Positions 2,438-23,234 of a DNA stretch of 28,406 nt are shown piece by piece; position 1 is the first letter of the stretch; each line of letters starts with the position of its first letter. Under the pieces are notes generated by a model, which made no database searches, had not been told where the DNA came from, and was given only the letters and a program-made list of their open reading frames with translations. Location: IMG/VR virus record IMGVR_UViG_3300010051_000002, positions 62,001 to 90,406 of that record; one strand, written 5' to 3'. This DNA comes from an uncultured virus (IMG/VR IMGVR_UViG_3300010051_000002) (Duplodnaviria > Heunggongvirae > Uroviricota > Caudoviricetes). The translations under genes and the position numbers were made by a program.

Positions 2438-3016
2438 ATGTATAGGATTAAACCATCATCTCGTAAGAGAAAGATCTTAACAAAAGATGATTTAACAAAA
2501 GCGATTGAAGAATACAGATATATAAATTATGTACCGTTAAGCTGGAAAGACGATAATAATACTACTACTACTACTAATGAAATATGGTATAGACAAAATA
2601 AACAAACTGGTGAATTTTATTATTGTCAGTATTGTATGAAAACAAAAAATTATAGTGAGGAAGAAATACCAAAATTAGAATTAATTAGTGTTGGTAGATG
2701 GATCAGTAAAACGTACTGTAGATGTGTTAATTGTGGTATTATTTTATGTTATACGTGTTTAAGTAAGGCTCAGGTTCAAAATCAAAAGTATTTACGTTCA
2801 AATTGCAATACCTGTAAGAATAGAAGAATTCAAGAAGCAAAGCCTACAAAAAAATGTGAATGTTCACCCGAATGTAATTATGAAATTCCAGTAACAAATC
2901 TAAAAGGACAGCCACAGAAATATGCAGTTGGTCATGGACTGAAATTCTACCATACAAACAATAGTTTTAAATGGATTGATTATCATGCAAAACTAGAAGA
3001 ATATGAACGTAAATAA
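2438..3016 (+). CDS. Multi-Zn-finger protein (CQYC, CVNC, CYTC, CNTC; C-terminal CEC..C...YAVGH)
   Basis: Several CxxC pairs; the C-terminal CxC..C...GH motif resembles Zn modules attached to viral homing-endonuclease-type proteins. Confidence 0.7.
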   Translation: MYRIKPSSRKRKILTKDDLTKAIEEYRYINYVPLSWKDDNNTTTTTNEIWYRQNKQTGEFYYCQYCMKTKNYSEEEIPKLELISVGRWISKTYCRCVNCGIILCYTCLSKAQVQNQKYLRSNCNTCKNRRIQEAKPTKKCECSPECNYEIPVTNLKGQPQKYAVGHGLKFYHTNNSFKWIDYHAKLEEYERK

Positions 3017-3407
3017 TATAGTAGTTGAAGAGCTGGGAAGAAAGTATAAAGATAAAAATTACAGGCTCTTGTATCAAATCCAGGTAGATTATAAAAAACC
3101 TGCCATTTCAAAAATGCTTTATTTAGATAAGGAAGCATTAACTGCTTTACATTCTAAGGTTAGGGAATTTGTTGATGAATCAGATATAACTAAACTTAAT
3201 GTTGTTTCATTTGGTCATAAATGCGGTAAGGATTGTGGTGAACCTGATCTAGACGTATTAAATGAACATAAATTTGGATCAATTATAGATATACGAGAAG
3301 CAAATTCATTTGCAGAAATAGAAGTATTTGATAAGAAGAAAGTAAAGGGTAAACCAGCAATTAAAAAGAAAAGTACTAAATCAAAGAAAAAAGTTAAGCA
3401 AAAATAA
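3003..3407 (+). CDS. Hypothetical protein with Lys-rich C-terminal tail
   Basis: Overlaps the previous gene; tail KKKVKGKPAIKKKSTKSKKKVKQK. Confidence 0.75.
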   Translation: MNVNNIVVEELGRKYKDKNYRLLYQIQVDYKKPAISKMLYLDKEALTALHSKVREFVDESDITKLNVVSFGHKCGKDCGEPDLDVLNEHKFGSIIDIREANSFAEIEVFDKKKVKGKPAIKKKSTKSKKKVKQK

Positions 3408-3440
3408 CACTTAAATGACTATATAGTTAATAATACTTAA

Positions 3441-3686
3441 CCCACATGCATATAAGGTAAAAAGATGGGTTTTGTCAATAGTATGGAAACGGTCACGTGC
3501 TATTGACAAAAAGATGGAAAGATGGGTAGGTAGTTTTTTCGCTCATTTTTCTCTATCTATCTATCTTTCCATTTCTTTACTGTTCTATATTTTGAATTGT
3601 TGTATGTTCTATGGCATGAACAGGTACAAGAAATAGAATAACAGTCAAGACAGTTTTTATAAAAGCATTGATGTGATTCACCCATG
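3441..3686 (+). ncRNA. Putative novel structured non-coding RNA (three long hairpins)
   Basis: H1: 3470-3485 pairs with 3496-3511 (16 bp, 2 G-U). H2: 3512-3533 pairs with 3553-3574 (22 contiguous bp, 4 G-U). H3: irregular stem ~3575-3650. All non-Watson-Crick pairs in H1 and H2 are G-U on the + strand. TATA-like CTTAAAT at 3410. Fills a 280-nt gap between convergent genes. Confidence 0.65.
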
Positions 3687-3687
3687 A

Positions 3688-3900
3688 TTAATACCCACTC
3701 TTTGATTTATTCCACTGAATAACCCTAAATCTTGTTTTAAGCATACAGCATATACAATATGTACCATTAATACATGCTATCTTCTTAATTGACCTATGGC
3801 AGTTCTGACAGAATCTATAACCTCTTTTATAATCACAACCTGTAAATGGTTTAAAGTTGGGATTGGTATTACAAATTCCTTTACATCTAATTTTACTCAT
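3688..3900 (-). CDS. Small Cys-rich protein (CKGIC...FCQNC...CICC..KTR)
   Basis: Cys pattern matches a small-protein family recalled from Nitrososphaerota (CKGIC...RCxxC...CPCC...LR); not searched. Confidence 0.7.
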   Translation of the reverse strand: MSKIRCKGICNTNPNFKPFTGCDYKRGYRFCQNCHRSIKKIACINGTYCICCMLKTRFRVIQWNKSKSGY

Positions 3901-4169
3901 TTTATTAACTTTCTTAACCTTTCAATTACTTCATAACCTGTTTCATCAATTATAATGAATCCATCACCAAATACCCTAACCATAAAATCATGTATTGCAA
4001 TGTCTATATCATTCATACCCAAACTTTTTAATTCATTTATTCTTTCTTTCTTGTAATCAAAACCTACTGTTCTAGGTGGACCGTTAACATACATAATATC
4101 ATTTATTCCCCACCTATAATGAAAATTAAATTTATCAAATGGATCAGTCATGTTATTCATTTCCTTCAA
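3897..4169 (-). CDS. Hypothetical protein (start may be ATG 4151)
   Basis: ORF with ATGA overlap to the downstream gene. Confidence 0.7.
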   Translation of the reverse strand: MKEMNNMTDPFDKFNFHYRWGINDIMYVNGPPRTVGFDYKKERINELKSLGMNDIDIAIHDFMVRVFGDGFIIIDETGYEVIERLRKLIK

Positions 4170-4374
4170 AACATATTTGATTCAATCTATGTTTCATTAT
4201 TGGATCAGGTATTCCTGTTACTGTTTTACAATTCAAACATTGCATGCTGAATGTTTTAGTATAGAATTCTTTCTTTTGACTGTAATCAAACTGTATATGA
4301 AATATAATATCTTTGCTTTCGCATAAACCGCAATACATTCCAGAATAGGGTAATTTATCTGATGTATATGGCAT
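4153..4374 (-). CDS. Zn-ribbon protein (CGLC...CLNC)
   Basis: Two CxxC motifs with beta-hairpin spacing. Confidence 0.75.
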   Translation of the reverse strand: MPYTSDKLPYSGMYCGLCESKDIIFHIQFDYSQKKEFYTKTFSMQCLNCKTVTGIPDPIMKHRLNQICFEGNE

Positions 4375-5800: not shown

Positions 5801-5823
5801 TTTGCGAAGATCTTCTTCGCAAA
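5801..5823. repeat. 23-bp imperfect palindrome, copy 1 (TTTGCGAAGA-TCT-TCTTCGCAAA)
   Basis: 10-bp inverted arms; exact reverse complement of 23180-23202; occupies the 25-bp gap between convergent genes. Confidence 0.9.
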
Positions 5824-6504
5824 TTATTTTACTATTGCTTGAATGTTTACCGCTTCCATATTTTCACGACTAAACGTAATGATAAGCCTGTTTACCTTTG
5901 AATCAGAAATATATTTTGCAACCTTTTCAAACATATCTTTATTCAGACTTACTTTTGTATTCATTTCTATTTCTTCACGTAGGTGTGCAACAGTACTGTT
6001 TAGTTCTTTAACCTGCTTTGCATATGAGCCAATCAATTCTGTCTGTCGTGTATTTGTGGGGTTTTCAACTTCTGCATTTGCCTGAGCTAGAGATACGGAT
6101 TTACCAACAGATTTACCTGCTTTTTCAGCTAATCTTGCATATTTATTTTTCTCGTATTCTTCTTTGGCAGTATTAGGATCTACTCTTGTACCACTTTCTA
6201 ATGTTTGATCGTTGGTACCGGCAGCTACAGCAATTTTATTTGGGTTAGCTCTAACCTTTGATTGGTCCTTATACTCAGCATCTAAACACTGTCTGATATA
6301 GTTCTTTGAAATTTGAAAACCCTGTAAATCTTTGGTCAGTTGAGTGCTTATTTTTTCCTTATCAAATCCAGCTTTATCTAGAGATTTGGCAGCCTTGTTT
6401 ACATACTCTTTTTTGTTAAACTCATATTCTGATGCTACATTACGGAATTCAGTAATTATTTTTTTATAATCTTCTGGTAGGTTTGGATCTAATTCATTTG
6501 TCAT
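5824..6504 (-). CDS. Putative DNA-binding protein (N-terminal HTH-like ISKNYIRQCLDAEYK motif, C-terminal coiled coil)
   Basis: Helical N-domain with an ISxxYIRxCL..YK motif recalled from Nitrososphaeraceae mobile-element proteins; function inferred. Confidence 0.5.
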   Translation of the reverse strand: MTNELDPNLPEDYKKIITEFRNVASEYEFNKKEYVNKAAKSLDKAGFDKEKISTQLTKDLQGFQISKNYIRQCLDAEYKDQSKVRANPNKIAVAAGTNDQTLESGTRVDPNTAKEEYEKNKYARLAEKAGKSVGKSVSLAQANAEVENPTNTRQTELIGSYAKQVKELNSTVAHLREEIEMNTKVSLNKDMFEKVAKYISDSKVNRLIITFSRENMEAVNIQAIVK

Positions 6505-6592: not shown

Positions 6593-7516
6593 ATGGACAT
6601 TACTAATAAAGTATTCTTGGGTAATACATTAGAACTGTTAAAAGATTTTCCAGATAATTCTATTGATTTGGTAGTTACTTCACCACCATATTATAAACTT
6701 CGAGATTACGAACATCCCGATCAGATAGGACAGGAAGATGATATGATTGATTATATTAGAAATTTGATGATGGTATTCTTAGAATGTAAACGCATACTCA
6801 AAGATACAGGTAGTATTTACGTAAACATTGCAGACAAGTATGATAAGTATAACTCTTTGATGGGAATACCAGAAGAGTTTATGCGAATGATGACTAGAAG
6901 TTTAGGATTCTTTAGACCCAATACTATTATTTGGCAAAAGAACGCTTTACCCGAATCACCTAAAGCAAGATACAGTAACAACTTTGAATACTTTTACTTC
7001 TTTACCAAATCCATAGATTATACATTTAATATACAGTATGAACCCTATGCAGAAAGTACACTAAAGCAAGTTGAACAAATCTACAAAGGTCAAGCGAAAA
7101 AAGACTATTCAAGTGGAAAGGTCCAAAACCCTAGTGATACCAAAAGAAGAATAATAAGCAGTATAAAATTTGGTGGGAAGAAATACCCCGATAACGTAGA
7201 TAATGGAACATATTCAGGGAAACAGTGGGTGATAGAACCAGAGAAAGGAGCTAGAAAAAGATGTGTATGGAAAATTGCAACCGCTAACAATACAGAAAAC
7301 CATTATGCAAGTTACCCTGAGAAACTTGTTGAAACTCCAATCAGAGCATCAAGCAACGTTGGTGATTTAGTTTTAGATCCTTTCTGTGGCAGCGGCACAA
7401 CCTTATTTGTTGCTAATAGATTGGGTAGAAAATATTGTGGTATTGATATACAGCAAAAGTATATCAACAGCATTAATAGAAAGTTAAGAGGTATGCTTGA
7501 TGTCTATATTAAATAA
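6593..7516 (+). CDS. Orphan DNA amino-methyltransferase, beta class (N4-mC/N6-mA)
   Basis: Motif IV LVVTSPPY at the N-terminus, HYASYP, and motif I VLDPFCGSGTT at the C-terminus. Confidence 0.93.
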   Translation: MDITNKVFLGNTLELLKDFPDNSIDLVVTSPPYYKLRDYEHPDQIGQEDDMIDYIRNLMMVFLECKRILKDTGSIYVNIADKYDKYNSLMGIPEEFMRMMTRSLGFFRPNTIIWQKNALPESPKARYSNNFEYFYFFTKSIDYTFNIQYEPYAESTLKQVEQIYKGQAKKDYSSGKVQNPSDTKRRIISSIKFGGKKYPDNVDNGTYSGKQWVIEPEKGARKRCVWKIATANNTENHYASYPEKLVETPIRASSNVGDLVLDPFCGSGTTLFVANRLGRKYCGIDIQQKYINSINRKLRGMLDVYIK

Positions 7517-9529: not shown

Positions 9530-9668
9530 TATACTGCACAAGGTAAAGTGGCAAAATGCTTACATTATTGATGATAGATTAAATCCATTTCAATGTAACA
9601 AATGTGGTGAACGTTTTAAGTTTGCCAAAAGATTAAGAAATCATATTAGGGAAATACATGCATATTGA
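9522..9668 (+). CDS. 48-aa C2H2 zinc-finger protein
   Basis: Read manually: PFQCNKCGERFKFAKRLRNHIREIHAY* fits F-x-C-x2-C-x3-F-x5-L-x2-H-x4-H. Confidence 0.85.
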   Translation: MTNILHKVKWQNAYIIDDRLNPFQCNKCGERFKFAKRLRNHIREIHAY

Positions 9669-10029
9669 TGAAAACGGTTATTGTAAAATTTGGAAAAATG
9701 GTAGATTTGTAAGGTTACATAGAGAAATCTACAAGCATTATCTTAAAATTTTATTTGATGAAGATATAGAAATTCCTGCTAATGTAGATATTCATCATAT
9801 AGATGGTAACAAACAAAATAACGCATTAATTAATTTACAACCTCTTTTACATGGATCACATTCTATTATTTCAAATATTAAAGATTTATCTAGTTATTTT
9901 TGTTTAAGATGTGGTAGTAAGAAAACTTACATTCAACCTAAAAATGATAGACCAAATTGGTATAAATATAAACATGGAGTGATATGTAAAAATTGTTACG
10001 AGTTAATGAGGTATCATAAAAGAAAATGA
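9658..10029 (+). CDS. HNH endonuclease with C-terminal Zn ribbon
   Basis: RLHR...DIHHIDGNKQNNALINLQ...H (HNH_3-type), then CLRC...CKNC. Confidence 0.88.
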   Translation: MHIDENGYCKIWKNGRFVRLHREIYKHYLKILFDEDIEIPANVDIHHIDGNKQNNALINLQPLLHGSHSIISNIKDLSSYFCLRCGSKKTYIQPKNDRPNWYKYKHGVICKNCYELMRYHKRK

Positions 10030-10697
10030 AGATTTTAGATTTATTCTCATGCTGTGGTGGAGCTGGTAAGGGATTATCTGATAATGGTAATAATGATGTA
10101 GTTGGGGTTGATATTACTAATAATCATGAGTACCCATTTATTTTTATTCATTCTGATGTTTTTGAATTACCAATGTCTTTTTTTCAGCACTTTGATCTTA
10201 TATGGGCTAGTCCACCATGCCAGCATTATCTACCTTTGAATAAGTGGCGTGGTAACGAATACCCCGATCTTGTTGGAAAAACTAGGGAGTTATTAAAAAA
10301 GACAAGAATACCATACATAATTGAAAACGTTCCTGGAGCTCCAATAAGGCAGGATCTTTTGTTATGTGGTGAAATGTTTAATGACCTTAGAATAATAAGA
10401 CATAGAATATTTGAATTCGGTAATGGATTTAAAAAACCATACAAACTACCACACAAAAGACACAAAGATACATTCATTGAAAACAATGTAAAGAAATCAA
10501 GATACGCATGTGTGGCAGGTCATGGTGGAAACTCTTATTCATTCACACTTACCGATTGGCAAAAGGCTATGGGTATAGATTGGATTACAAATAAAGAACA
10601 TCTAGCACAGGCAATACCACCAGCATATGCTAATTATATAATAACAAACAAAGTTGAGCATGTTAAAAGACTAGAGGATTTTCTAATACAAACATGA
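10026..10697 (+). CDS. Compact phage-type DNA (cytosine-5) methyltransferase
   Basis: Motif I ILDLFSCCGG, catalytic ASPPCQ, IENV, RHR and QAIPP. Confidence 0.88.
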   Translation: MKILDLFSCCGGAGKGLSDNGNNDVVGVDITNNHEYPFIFIHSDVFELPMSFFQHFDLIWASPPCQHYLPLNKWRGNEYPDLVGKTRELLKKTRIPYIIENVPGAPIRQDLLLCGEMFNDLRIIRHRIFEFGNGFKKPYKLPHKRHKDTFIENNVKKSRYACVAGHGGNSYSFTLTDWQKAMGIDWITNKEHLAQAIPPAYANYIITNKVEHVKRLEDFLIQT

Positions 10698-11009: not shown

Positions 11010-11632
11010 ATAAATTTGATTGTCTTTTAGTAGATCCAGCATGGGAATATAAAAATAAAAAAACTGGTGGTAGTTTCAAATCAGGAGCTTCACAGAAATA
11101 CGAAACCATGAGTATTGTAGATATTCAGAACCTATACGATAATTTACAACTAGACAAGTTAATGGATGATGATTGTTGTTTGTTCTTATGGACTACAAAC
11201 AGTATGCTACCACACGCTATATGTGCTTTAGAACTATGGGGATTTGAATATAAGACAATGATTACATGGATCAAGCCTAACTTCGGTATGGGATTCTGGT
11301 ATAGAAATAAAACAGAACATATGTTATTTGGAATTAAAGGCAAAGTAAAACCATTTAGATTTGCATATGAAAATATATTCTATACTCAGAATCAATTGAA
11401 ACATTCACAAAAACCACAGAAAAGTTACAGGATTGTAGAACAGGCTGCACAAATGGTTGCATTTGATAAAGATAGAGGTGGTATTAATATACTGGAATTA
11501 TTCGCAAGAAAACAACATAAATCATTAAATGATAGTATACGCTGGGTATGCCTGGGTAAAGAAATATCTAGAAATACTCTAGATGTAGATGTTCAAAATC
11601 TTATATCTTTAAATGCAAATATTACAAAATAA
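11006..11632 (+). CDS. MT-A70 family N6-adenine methyltransferase (probable ATA start)
   Basis: In-frame FDCLLVDPAW catalytic motif upstream of the first ATG (11108); LFLWTTN, WGFEYKT, WIK, EHMLFG, HSQKP, LELFAR. Confidence 0.88.
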   Translation: MNKFDCLLVDPAWEYKNKKTGGSFKSGASQKYETMSIVDIQNLYDNLQLDKLMDDDCCLFLWTTNSMLPHAICALELWGFEYKTMITWIKPNFGMGFWYRNKTEHMLFGIKGKVKPFRFAYENIFYTQNQLKHSQKPQKSYRIVEQAAQMVAFDKDRGGINILELFARKQHKSLNDSIRWVCLGKEISRNTLDVDVQNLISLNANITK

Positions 11633-17440: not shown

Positions 17441-17731
17441 ATGAAAACGAAAGATCTGGATCTAGAGTACGAGTTTGATATGAATGATGTGATGGTGGCG
17501 TGTTTAACACTGACTGCTGCATTTTTATTTTTATGGTGGGGGTTGTATATAGTCAAGGGTGTATTTTCCCCTGCTATGGGAATACCGTTCATCCTTATTT
17601 TGGTATTTTACGTATTGCTGGATGAACATAACGATCAGACAAAAGCAAGAAATGATATTAGAATTGCTGAAAGTTTGCAAGCAAATGACTACATACAACT
17701 GACACATAAAACCGCAATAAAATATGTGTAG
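17441..17731 (+). CDS. 2-TM membrane protein
   Basis: Two hydrophobic helices; first gene of the replication operon. Confidence 0.7.
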   Translation: MKTKDLDLEYEFDMNDVMVACLTLTAAFLFLWWGLYIVKGVFSPAMGIPFILILVFYVLLDEHNDQTKARNDIRIAESLQANDYIQLTHKTAIKYV

Positions 17732-19630: not shown

Positions 19631-20000
19631 TCAAATGCCATTTTCACCAAAAGATTATGATGAACTGCTAGATTATTTTTCAGAAGAAGAAAGGCTTGAT
19701 TATGTTCGTTTAACTATGCAGGTAGCAAATGGACATATAACAGAAGAATTCTTTAACGCAAAACATGATGAACTGTTTCAAAAGGTAGCAAAAAGAAAGG
19801 AAGAATTGGACAGGTATAATGCAATAAAACGAACTGATAAAGATGAAATATCTATGAAACTATACGGTGGTGTACATTCTGATTACGGGATTAAAAAGAA
19901 ACTAGATAAAATTAATGGTAGTAGTTTTATTGATAGGTACAAGCGTAAGATGCAAAAGAAAGAAGATACAAGACAAGTATCAACCTTTTATGATGTATAA
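19623..20000 (+). CDS. Hypothetical protein translationally coupled to polB
   Basis: Likely ATG 19623; TAATG overlap with polB; PIP-like tail TRQVSTFY. Confidence 0.7.
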   Translation: MNDQMPFSPKDYDELLDYFSEEERLDYVRLTMQVANGHITEEFFNAKHDELFQKVAKRKEELDRYNAIKRTDKDEISMKLYGGVHSDYGIKKKLDKINGSSFIDRYKRKMQKKEDTRQVSTFYDV

Positions 20001-22633
20001 TGATAGACAACAATCTTAATCTTGAAGGTAAAGAATTATGCCTTCTCAATGTATATTTTGAACCAAACAATCATAATATTTTTCTCAAACTATACGATAT
20101 TGAGAAGAAGAAATTATACAATATAAAAGATGCTTCAATGTTTAAAGGATTTTTTTATATCAAAAAAGAAGATATTAACAATGCTGATTTACAGAAATTT
20201 TTATCAGAACATAATGAATTTGAAGTTACATTAGAAACAAAATATGATGGTATAACAAATAAACCAGTTGAAGTATATAAATTTGAAAGTTACAATACTT
20301 TTAACTGTTATAAAAAATGGACCGAAGAATTAAAGATTCCAAACCAGTATGAGTATCTTATAAAACTCTATGAAAGTTTCTATCTTTCTAATCAACTGGT
20401 ACCGTGTGCAATTTATGAAGTTAAAAATGGCAAGTTAGAGTTTAAACGATTTCCGTTAAACGAGGTGGCAGTTCATACGCTTACAAAAATGATTCAAGAT
20501 AACAACACTGGTAATAAAATCTACAATGAATATCTAACAGAATATACCGAGCTTTTGAGTCAACCGGTACCTTTTATCAGAAGGGTAGCACTAGACATTG
20601 AAGCATACAGTAGTGATAATAGGGTACCAGATCCAGCAAATCCTAAAGATCCCATCATATGCTGTTCATTTTATGATAACGAAGGTGGTAAGGTGGTTGT
20701 AATGTCAAAAGAACATTTAACTCCTGTACAGTTAGCACAGGTAAATGATTCTGAGTATATCATACATGATTACATGCTTTTAGTAAATACCGAAGTGGAA
20801 TTAATTCAGTATATCTTTAAAATGATAAAAGAATACCCTATGGTTATTACCTTTGTAGGTGATAGTTTCGATCTTGCTTACATTTCAGAACGAGCAATTA
20901 AACTTGGTATGGTAGATCCGTTTAATACTCCTATTCGATTCACCCAAGATAATCTAACAAAGAAGGGAAACAAAGATCCTGTTTTTATTAAACATTCAAT
21001 TCATATTGACTTGTTTCCACTTTTTAAAAATAAAAGCTTGCATGGTTACGGATTTAACAATAAATATACTCAATTCGGATTGGATCATATATCAAAAGCA
21101 CTGATAGGTGAAGGCAAAATTGAACATGATGTTCCATTAAATGAACTATCAATTAATGACCTAGCTAGGTACTGCCTGCGTGATTCAGAACTTACTTTAA
21201 AATTAACAACATATTCTGATGAACTTGTAATGAAATTGCTTTTTACCATAGCACGAATTACCAAAGCAAGTATTGAAGATATAGCACGCTATGGTATGAC
21301 AAGCTGGGCTAGATCGATGCTTTATTTTGAACACAGGCGTTGGGGTATGTTAATACCTACAAAGGATGAAATCAGAACTGGTAAGGGTGAAGGCAGTACT
21401 CAGGCAATTATTAAAGATAAGAAATTTCAAGGTGCATATGTATTAGAACCAAAGATCGGTACCTTCTTTAATGTTACAACAATGGACTATGCCAGTCTGT
21501 ACCCATCTATCATTAAAAGATATAATATAAGCTATGAAACAATAAACTGCAATCATCCAAAATGCAAAGAGAAAAATCAAATTCCACAAACCACACATCA
21601 TTACTGTACAAAACGAACTGGATTAACTTCATTGATAATTGGCGTAATGAGGGATCTCAGGGTAAACTACTTCAAAAGATTATCAAAAGATAAAAATCTA
21701 ACCGAAGATCAACGTGATTTGTATGATTCGATCACTCAAGCAAGTAAGGTTATTCTTAACGGTAGCTACGGTGTTGTGGGTAGTGACTATTTCAATCTTT
21801 ATTGCATACCTGTGGCTGAAAGTGTTACTGCATTAGGCAGAAATATTATTATGAAAACAAAAGAATATGCAGAACAAAAGTTAGGTTTACAAGTTTTATA
21901 CGGTGATACCGATTCTATTTTTATATATAATCCAACTCAGGACCAGATAAACAATTTAATAAATTTCTCAAAAGGACAGTTTGATATAGATTTAGAGGTA
22001 GATAAGGAATACAAACTTATTATTTTTTCAAATAGAAAGAAAAATTATTTTGGAATTCATAAAGATAACAAGATAGAAACAAAAGGATTAACAGGAAAGA
22101 AAAGCAACGTACCTGATTATATCAAAAAGTGTTTTAATGAGGTAACCCAATTGCTTGTAAACGTAGATGATAATGAAAAGTTAGAGGTAGCAAAAAAGGA
22201 AATCAAAGATCTGATTCAAAATTACGTAACTGATTTGAGAAATTATAAGGTAGATTTAAAAGAATTAACATTTCAAAATAAACTAACCCAAGATGTAGAT
22301 AGTTACGGTGAAGTAACATCTATGAATACGGATCTATTTGGACAGAAGCAAGTAACGAAAAAAGGCGTACCAATTCATGTAAAAATAGCCGAACAAATAC
22401 AGAAAAAAACAGGCGAAAAGATAGAAGAAAAAACTTTCATTCAATACATAAAGACGGTTAAGGGAGCAAAATTAGCGAGTGAGTGCAAAAGAAGCGATAT
22501 AGATATACCCAAATACATAGACACAATGAAAACAGCTCTAGATCCCATCTTGGAAGTACTTGGTATGGATTTCAGTCAGATAGCAGATAACACAAAGAAA
22601 CAAACAAGTTTAGATAGTTTATTTTTTAAATAA
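20000..22633 (+). CDS. polB: Family B DNA polymerase, archaeal PolB1-like, with 3'-5' exonuclease
   Basis: ExoI ALDIE, ExoII GDSFDLAY, ExoIII YCLRD; DYASLYPSII, KVILNGSYG, YGDTDS, KKNY, KGLTGKK; C-terminal PIP-like QTSLDSLFF. Confidence 0.97.
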   Translation: MIDNNLNLEGKELCLLNVYFEPNNHNIFLKLYDIEKKKLYNIKDASMFKGFFYIKKEDINNADLQKFLSEHNEFEVTLETKYDGITNKPVEVYKFESYNTFNCYKKWTEELKIPNQYEYLIKLYESFYLSNQLVPCAIYEVKNGKLEFKRFPLNEVAVHTLTKMIQDNNTGNKIYNEYLTEYTELLSQPVPFIRRVALDIEAYSSDNRVPDPANPKDPIICCSFYDNEGGKVVVMSKEHLTPVQLAQVNDSEYIIHDYMLLVNTEVELIQYIFKMIKEYPMVITFVGDSFDLAYISERAIKLGMVDPFNTPIRFTQDNLTKKGNKDPVFIKHSIHIDLFPLFKNKSLHGYGFNNKYTQFGLDHISKALIGEGKIEHDVPLNELSINDLARYCLRDSELTLKLTTYSDELVMKLLFTIARITKASIEDIARYGMTSWARSMLYFEHRRWGMLIPTKDEIRTGKGEGSTQAIIKDKKFQGAYVLEPKIGTFFNVTTMDYASLYPSIIKRYNISYETINCNHPKCKEKNQIPQTTHHYCTKRTGLTSLIIGVMRDLRVNYFKRLSKDKNLTEDQRDLYDSITQASKVILNGSYGVVGSDYFNLYCIPVAESVTALGRNIIMKTKEYAEQKLGLQVLYGDTDSIFIYNPTQDQINNLINFSKGQFDIDLEVDKEYKLIIFSNRKKNYFGIHKDNKIETKGLTGKKSNVPDYIKKCFNEVTQLLVNVDDNEKLEVAKKEIKDLIQNYVTDLRNYKVDLKELTFQNKLTQDVDSYGEVTSMNTDLFGQKQVTKKGVPIHVKIAEQIQKKTGEKIEEKTFIQYIKTVKGAKLASECKRSDIDIPKYIDTMKTALDPILEVLGMDFSQIADNTKKQTSLDSLFFK

Positions 22634-22635
22634 AA

Positions 22636-23178
22636 ATGCTTTATTCTAATTTTACTGCTAATGATGTTTTTGTACCTAGTAGTTACTTTAGAAAGTATGA
22701 TAAAAATAATAAAAGATTATGCTCGTTAAAAGAATGTTTTAAACCTGTTAAAGATGGTAGATATATTACATGTTCTGATGAACATAGTAATGAATTCAAT
22801 CGCTGGTATTGTGATCATTTTCTTTGGTATAGTATTAAGATTATAATTTTAAAAAGAGATAATTATACATGTCAAATTTGTAAACAGGATTTTTCTCAAT
22901 ATTTAAATGAAAATAGTGTATGGTATGGTACTGTTGGTCAATTTGTCGAATTTGATCATATAATACCAAAGAGCAAAGCACTTGATTTACATTTAGTGGT
23001 AAAAAAGCCAATGGATCGATATTATATAATGTGGAATCAAATAATTGGAAATCATAATAATCTTAGAACATTATGTAAGGTTTGTCACCGTAAAGTAACA
23101 AATGAGTATATGAAAGAAGTTGGTAGGAAAAAAAGAATTAATAATTTAAGAAAAAAAGGACAAACATTTTTAGTGTAA
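22636..23178 (+). CDS. HNH endonuclease with N-terminal Zn finger
   Basis: ILKRDNYTCQIC...EFDHIIPKS...NNLRTLCKVCH. Confidence 0.9.
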   Translation: MLYSNFTANDVFVPSSYFRKYDKNNKRLCSLKECFKPVKDGRYITCSDEHSNEFNRWYCDHFLWYSIKIIILKRDNYTCQICKQDFSQYLNENSVWYGTVGQFVEFDHIIPKSKALDLHLVVKKPMDRYYIMWNQIIGNHNNLRTLCKVCHRKVTNEYMKEVGRKKRINNLRKKGQTFLV

Positions 23179-23179
23179 T

Positions 23180-23202
23180 TTTGCGAAGAAGATCTTCGCA
23201 AA
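23180..23202. repeat. 23-bp imperfect palindrome, copy 2 (TTTGCGAAGA-AGA-TCTTCGCAAA)
   Basis: Exact inverted copy of 5801-5823, at the boundary between the replication and head modules. Confidence 0.9.
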
Positions 23203-23234
23203 TTATATTAGTTATCTCTTTGCAGTTCTGTTGT

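Follow-up and report, generated by a model that had tools for sequence, protein, structure and literature searches.

A double hairpin between convergent genes of an archaeal-type tailed virus as a candidate plus-strand RNA module

In this study, we describe an intergenic element of an uncultured virus in which two long hairpins, H1 (16 bp) and H2 (22 bp), directly abut in the largest gap between convergent genes of the genome. Its predicted fold is markedly stronger on the plus strand than on the antisense strand, it occurs once in the genome, and it is retained in the one true relative found, the metagenome contig L023, where H1 has changed its sequence and still pairs. We see about an even chance that the element is a functional plus-strand RNA module, and this chance is split roughly equally between a small RNA with its own promoter and a 3'-UTR structure of the upstream transcription unit.

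The window, i.e., the whole stretch of 28,406 nt that was analysed, comprises bases 62,001-90,406 of the 90,406-bp IMG/VR record IMGVR_UViG_3300010051_000002, and coordinates refer to the window unless marked as genome. The record represents a complete viral genome with direct terminal repeats and a GC content of ~30%. It contains 4 N, two of which sit at ~1310-1330 (genome ~63,320), upstream of a minus-strand gene. Since the virus encodes MCM, a family-B DNA polymerase (PolB), the large subunit of an archaeo-eukaryotic primase, an Hjc resolvase, a tail tube protein and a Mu-F-like head protein, it is an archaeal-type tailed virus. PolB (20000-22633) shares 39% identity along its full length with the PolB of a Nitrososphaerales MAG, and near-identical DNA is present in sludge, farm, soil and rhizosphere runs, with zero RNA runs among those listed as containing the virus; the polymerase match and these habitats give a weak hint of the host. 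The window also encodes three DNA methyltransferases, one each of the N6/N4, C5 and MT-A70 classes, and two HNH endonucleases (6593-7516, 10026-10697, 11108-11632, 9658-10029 and 22636-23178 for the five genes), one of the endonucleases being wedged directly after PolB.

The element itself is surrounded by a cluster of small Cys-rich ORFan genes. The features of the locus are as follows.

2438-3016 and 3003-3407, plus strand: two-gene unit that converges on the element
3003..3407, plus strand: 134-aa gene, last of the two-gene unit; the N-terminal ~55 aa form a conserved domain, and the Lys-rich tail varies
3401..3440, plus strand: invariant promoter-like block from the stop codon onwards, identical in L023
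3441..3469, plus strand: unpaired leader that ends in AAAAAGATGGG, identical in L023
3470..3511, plus strand: H1 (3470-3485/3496-3511), 16 contiguous bp with 2 G-U pairs and a 10-nt loop containing ACGGTCA
3512..3574, plus strand: H2 (3512-3533/3553-3574), 22 uninterrupted bp with 4 G-U pairs and a U-rich loop of 19 nt
3575..3589, plus strand: pyrimidine-rich tail, identical in L023, end of the conserved block
3590..3687, plus strand: variable spacer with the hairpin H3 and the end pairings described earlier; folds here, fold lost in L023
3688..3900, minus strand: 70-aa Cys-rich gene, last of the minus-strand unit and convergent neighbour of the element
about 5302 down to 3688, minus strand: unit that converges on the plus-strand unit across the 280-nt gap

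Neither neighbouring protein has a family match in Pfam or PHROG. For the 134-aa protein an AlphaFold model was unusable (pLDDT 38), and its family amounts to four proteins, three relatives having been found among 5.8 billion clusters. At the other end of the plus-strand unit, a GC-rich hairpin (GGTAGG...CCTACC, ~2408-2428) separates the start codon of the first gene (192 aa) from a TATA-like box. The gene at genome 50394 has a comparable GGGTAGG/CCTACCC hairpin in front of it, and a search for a link of the GGGTAGG motif to other hairpins revealed no enrichment.

An earlier note, made from the DNA letters and their open reading frames, had described a highly structured RNA in this gap, and much of its geometry was reproduced. 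The gap between the stop of the plus-strand gene (3407) and that of the minus-strand gene (3688) is indeed 280 nt long, H1 and H2 pair without interruption over 16 and 22 bp exactly where they had been placed, and all six non-Watson-Crick pairs in the two stems are G-U on the plus strand, with zero A-C. Among the contiguous plus-strand hairpins of the genome H2 ranks first and H1 third. The second-longest (17526-17584; 17 pairs, 6 of them G-U, plus strand) is located within a 96-aa gene. The longest stems in five block-shuffled genomes, with G-U allowed, reach 14-21 pairs, and therefore neither H1 nor H2 is decisive alone; the exceptional features are the adjacency of the two hairpins and their combined energy.

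The comparison with shuffled sequences on both strands that the earlier note had proposed came out in favour of the plus strand. Here, the region 3408-3690 has a folding energy of -82.7 kcal/mol (z -6.28), a value reached by 0 of 200 shuffles, and its antisense one of -60.6 kcal/mol (z -3.97). In a scan of ~4,500 windows of 120 nt across the whole 90-kb genome the most stable one starts at 3461 (-48.5 against a mean of -17.6, sd 5.9). The corresponding element of L023 yields -76.9 (z -5.85) in plus sense and -58.4 (z -2.69) in antisense, thus fold and strand asymmetry are both kept in the relative. The asymmetry is also visible with DNA parameters, which give the core a z of -4.99 on the plus strand and -3.15 on the minus strand. 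The plus strand is G- and T-rich at the element, so that a strand bias of mutation, with no selection on an RNA, could leave G-T mismatches in place of A-C ones. Strand-biased C-to-T mutation or a hairpin in single-stranded DNA would likewise give rise to the G-T wobble asymmetry.

The earlier note had proposed collecting homologs from related contigs in IMG/VR and testing covariation. Protein and pattern scans found none there, but one relative from a metagenome, L023, a contig of 90.6 kb, keeps the element in synteny, which extends over the 6 kb compared. Among public contigs aligned to the region, the same variant is also present in run X2, and a second, partial variant occurs in runs X3 and X4 (two studies, low depth). 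The comparison set thus consists of the window sequence, one full relative and one partial variant. Within the gap, the window and L023 differ in two patches only, the top of H1 (3478-3503) and 3590-3687; there are zero differences in 3401-3477 and 3504-3589, that is, 0 in 163 nt of the gap and ~32 in its other 117 nt. The flanking genes are 80-95% identical per 100 nt. The genome pair is a mosaic in which identical runs within genes can be as long as 281 nt and runs of 77-86 nt are not rare; therefore, we make no claim of genome-wide conservation and limit the argument to the local gap. Compared with the flanking genes and with the remaining gap sequence, the two invariant blocks do look constrained.

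In L023 the lower 8 bp of H1 and its loop core ACGGTCA are unchanged, and the upper stem has been rebuilt by deletions in both arms and by substitutions into a 15-bp stem with one G-U and no A-C (-16.8, compared with -20.0 in the window). Counting this new pair, 7 of 7 non-Watson-Crick pairs are G-U on the plus strand. H1 of the X3/X4 type carries, of these changes, only those in the 3' arm, is weaker (-10.1) and looks like an intermediate form. A structure-aware realignment of H1 merely reproduced the MAFFT alignment. The stem and 19-nt loop of H2 are identical in all variants compared and hence uninformative on covariation, for or against pairing. With one full relative and one partial variant, the covariation thus rests on a single stem, H1.

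The third hairpin and the end pairings fared differently. H1 and H2 were borne out, but H3 proved to be only the minimum-energy fold of the window sequence: among its 12 differences from L023, 8 disrupt the pairing, 1 preserves it and 3 fall at unpaired positions, and the structure found in the window (-19.2) reaches only -7.8 on the L023 sequence. Similarly, the end pairings CACAT/ATGTG and ATGGGT/ACCCAT had been positioned correctly, but the former is lost in L023, where ACCCA is kept. As the fold of H3 is lost, 3590-3687 probably lies outside the functional core. Because neither H3 nor CACAT/ATGTG is conserved and the differences are confined to patches, the real unit would extend over ~3401-3589 and not over 3441-3686, as had been proposed. 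Short repeats are found at this unit: AAAGATGGG has 2 occurrences in the 90-kb genome, both within the element, and AAAGATGG(G/A) is repeated three times within 66 nt in an iteron-like manner.

In agreement with the earlier note, which had recognised no known family, Rfam 15 covariance models gave 0 matches at the gathering thresholds that define family membership in the whole window. In a permissive scan of 3380-3720 all 12 matches reflected generic hairpin likeness far below threshold, the best (IBV_D-RNA) scoring 22.1 bits against a threshold of 35. An archaeal H/ACA guide sRNA, which has a stem broken by a pseudouridylation pocket, a K-turn and a 3' ACA box, was rejected: the stems are uninterrupted, and snoR135 (21.7 bits against 45) and snoR144 (17.8 against 100) scored low. 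No tRNA or tmRNA was found. A MITE or other mobile insertion, a match that would have spoken against the earlier note and that would call for several copies, terminal inverted repeats with target duplication and presence/absence polymorphism, was likewise dismissed, since neither BLAST nor a covariance model built from the window and L023 sequences detected a second copy in the 90-kb genome and L023 carries the element in the same syntenic place.

Wider searches yielded no relative beyond L023. The H2 20-mer had 0 hits in IMG/VR and 3 in metagenomes, with L023 the only real one, and the H2 hairpin pattern had 0 in IMG/VR and 34 in genomes, all due to chance, as were all 16 loci of an H1 pattern scan. 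Among 301 sampled genomes of one archaeal order, a tally that includes three unpublished genomes (G261, G272 and G109), only low-complexity matches to the pyrimidine-rich arm were obtained. This search, which had been designed for another question, also brought up no conspicuous CRISPR-repeat-like match of the kind that an RNA anti-CRISPR mimicking its host's repeat would show. Single-protein scans of IMG/VR with both flanking proteins and PolB returned no relatives, and the four-protein alignment of the 134-aa family had no match in IMG/VR or in the species-genome collection. The lineage is rare. Antisense targets of the element in the viral genome were not detected above chance.

The block 3401-3440 may serve as a candidate archaeal promoter for a rightward transcript, with a start site predicted at ~3438-3450. 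It contains the TATA-like CTTAAAT already pointed out at 3410 (3410-3416), a TATATA (3421-3426) and a direct repeat of AATAAYACTTAA (3403-3414 and 3429-3440), and boxes resembling CTTATATAA or CTTAAAT are frequent ~31-41 nt before the start codons of this virus's genes. Of the 96 genomic occurrences of the motif class CTTA[TA]A[TA], 27 are in non-coding DNA (7.9% of the genome), a 3.5-fold enrichment, and the copies in the gap lie at 3410 on the plus strand and at 3456 on the minus strand. About one occurrence is expected by chance in such a gap, and therefore the promoter evidence is only permissive. An expectation-maximisation motif search for the promoter produced no sharp motif.

Signals for transcription termination were analysed on both strands. 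On the plus strand the loop of H2 contains T6 (3534-3539) and T5 (3546-3550), and on the minus strand a T5 directly follows each hairpin (A5 at 3508-3512 and 3460-3464 on the plus strand). By the archaeal oligo-T criterion (at least 5 T in a row on the transcribed strand, downstream of the gene) tracts are present on both strands as candidates. A bacterial-type intrinsic terminator, with a short GC-rich stem, a loop of 3-8 and an immediately following T-run, was rejected, as the stems of H1 and H2 are AT-rich, their loops measure 10 and 19 nt, and a pattern scan of 3000-4200 on both strands gave 0 sites. According to the earlier note, archaeal terminators are usually oligo-T and need no stems. 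This is correct in that T-stretches were the main type of intergenic terminator in Haloferax, but in the same organism hairpins were found upstream of 503 termination sites, and at one such hairpin 59% of transcripts were terminated (excerpts of PMC7237163).

This virus also possesses a 23-nt perfect palindromic hairpin, TTTGCGAAGA-nnn-TCTTCGCAAA, with six genome copies in either orientation (window 5803-5825 and 23182-23204; genome 5052, 33290, 43130 and 53361). Five of the six occupy short gaps at which genes converge, the sixth follows an HNH endonuclease gene, and one copy is also found in L023 (494-524). It is probably the standard gene-end or insulator hairpin of this virus, and the junction 3407/3688 is without it. 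When used as a lineage tag in IMG/VR, the pattern was present in only one other record.

The gap had also been called free of ORFs, which did not strictly hold: it contains a 54-codon ORF on the plus strand that starts with TTG, with a 41-codon ATG ORF nested in it, and a 42-codon ORF on the minus strand. From their sequences we judge these small ORFs to be non-coding. The minus-strand ORF is frameshifted in L023. The nested plus-strand ORF (ATG 3514 to TAG 3636, 41 codons, 40 aa) is open and of equal length there, its first 25 codons being identical even at third positions, and 9 of 9 nucleotide changes are nonsynonymous and turn a basic tail into an acidic one. The 25 invariant codons, third positions included, together with the exclusively nonsynonymous changes suggest that constraint acts on the nucleotides and not on a protein. 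The peptide is hydrophobic and charged at one end, and its ATG lies within the 5' arm of H2. These properties, the conserved length of the ORF and the convergent arrangement, which is also known at some type I toxin-antitoxin loci, would fit a structured mRNA for a small type I toxin-like peptide with its start codon buried in H2. The ORF of such an mRNA would be expected to be under purifying selection and to be accompanied by an antisense RNA. Against this reading, which we consider highly improbable, stand the substitution pattern, the tendency of T-rich DNA to yield hydrophobic ORFs by composition, and the outcome of a search of 1.84 billion representative proteins, which gave 0 homologs at E <= 0.001 but has low power with a 40-aa query.

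Three further explanations deserve consideration. The element might be a termination or insulation device in which hairpins and T-tracts stop or stall RNA polymerase in both directions at the convergent junction, the RNA structure being incidental. Its place in the largest convergent gap, the T-tracts in the H2 loop (3534-3550) and behind the hairpins on the minus strand, and the convergent setting of most copies of the other palindromic hairpin of this genome all agree with such a role. Moreover, hairpins can terminate archaeal transcription, as in the 59% measured with a Haloferax reporter (PMC7237163, excerpted). However, the junction lacks the usual 23-nt gene-end hairpin and has instead an element ten times larger, the terminator-pattern scan was empty, and a pure terminator leaves the invariant 19-nt loop and the 70-nt leader block unexplained. 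In addition, the G-U pairs are exclusively on the plus strand, whereas the hairpin-plus-T5 arrangement is on the minus strand. In our view this device is unlikely, though it is the rival to be taken most seriously. A site that works at the DNA level, bound by a protein or acting as a strand-specific single-stranded hairpin signal, e.g., in replication priming or as an origin of this MCM/PriL/PolB virus, appears quite unlikely. G-T wobbles also stabilise DNA hairpins and the DNA fold is stronger on the plus strand, the AAAGATGG(G/A) repeats resemble iterons, invariant arms and loop would suit recognition by a protein, and the virus has its own replication proteins. An origin, however, is expected to have an AT-rich element for unwinding, repeated boxes for initiator binding on either side of it, and a signal from skew or context. 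At the element the three AAAGATGG repeats are seen, and both the AT-rich stretch and a skew inflection are absent: local GC (0.30-0.36) is at or above the genome mean, GC skew tracks gene orientation only, and replication genes are not adjacent. Furthermore, operators bound by dimers do not typically have arms of 22 bp with 19 nt between them.

It is very unlikely that the element is a functionless palindrome in decay or an inverted repeat derived from a microsatellite. The arms of H2 are tetranucleotide-repeat-like, its 3' arm being (CTAT)3, stems of 14-21 pairs with G-U also appear in block-shuffled genomes, H3 decays freely, and a strand-biased C-to-T change could yield the G-T pairs. Decay does not account for the fact that two of the three longest hairpins of the genome abut, that differences from L023 are absent from 163 nt while ~32 fall in the other 117 nt of the gap, and that H1 regained a perfect stem after its sequence changed.

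A plus-strand RNA is favoured over these explanations because of the exclusive G-U pairs (7/7), the z asymmetry in two viruses, the re-pairing of H1 and the invariance of the leader, the H1 loop core and H2. The plus-strand RNA reading of the earlier note is thus upheld in so far as the G-U pattern, the asymmetry and H1 fit it, but H3 and one end pairing are not conserved and the promoter motif is close to chance expectation. The functional unit, ~190 nt (3401-3589), would be read as plus-strand RNA and would fold into a single-stranded leader of ~30 nt followed by the abutting H1 (16 bp) and H2 (22 bp, U-rich 19-nt loop). Such an RNA may originate from its own TATA-like promoter just past the stop codon of the 134-aa gene, which would give an sRNA of ~135-155 nt, or may be the 3' end of the mRNA of that gene. 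Transcription, transcript ends and function of the element are what we infer from these features. Potentially, a viral or host protein is bound by the double-stem RNA through the invariant leader, the H1 loop and H2, and/or the RNA protects the 3' end of the plus-strand transcript from exonucleases where two transcription units collide. Several points count against the RNA module: the weaker H1 of the X3/X4 type, the possible origin of the G-T pairs in strand-biased mutation, and the T6/T5 tracts in the H2 loop, which resemble archaeal oligo-T terminators and could stop the polymerase before the 3' arm of H2 is made. It is possible, though doubtful, that the element belongs to an unrecognised archaeal-virus sRNA family, i.e., that the early-gene region yields a ~140-nt own-promoter transcript with an invariant leader and two coaxially stacked hairpins, which would act in trans, either as a decoy for proteins or as a regulator, in infected ammonia-oxidising archaea of soil and sludge.

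To our knowledge, the non-coding RNAs of tailed viruses of mesophilic archaea are almost unexplored. If expressed, the element would be a compact and easily assayed example of such an RNA, and would offer a handle on how these viruses manage colliding transcription units or host factors. Judged from its sequence, it represents a new candidate among known viral intergenic RNA structures, with good structural and thin comparative evidence.

Hairpin-assisted terminators and 3' stem-loops, i.e., bidirectional intrinsic ones in bacteria and those described for archaea (in part of PMC7237163), share with the element a convergent position, strong stems and oligo-T on both strands. The element is far larger than these, with 38 bp in two stems and a conserved leader, it has no GC-rich stem followed by a U-run, its strongest T-tracts are inside a loop, and its sequence invariance exceeds what a terminator needs. 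With the 23-nt palindrome of the same virus (TTTGCGAAGA-nnn-TCTTCGCAAA) it has in common the gene-end position, mostly convergent, and a stem with a T-run at its start and an A-run at its end; in contrast to the palindrome it is single-copy and strand-asymmetric, and there is no sequence likeness between the two. Type I toxin-antitoxin loci likewise combine a small hydrophobic ORF in a highly structured RNA with a convergent locus, but the ORF of the element shows neither a coding signature nor homologs. Phages have small structured regulatory or protein-binding RNAs, for example two-stem-loop cis-acting RNAs, with which the element shares compact adjacent stem-loops and an unpaired leader. 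Unlike these phage RNAs, this putative transcript has no likeness to any Rfam family, in sequence or by covariance model, and belongs to a virus whose host domain is archaeal.
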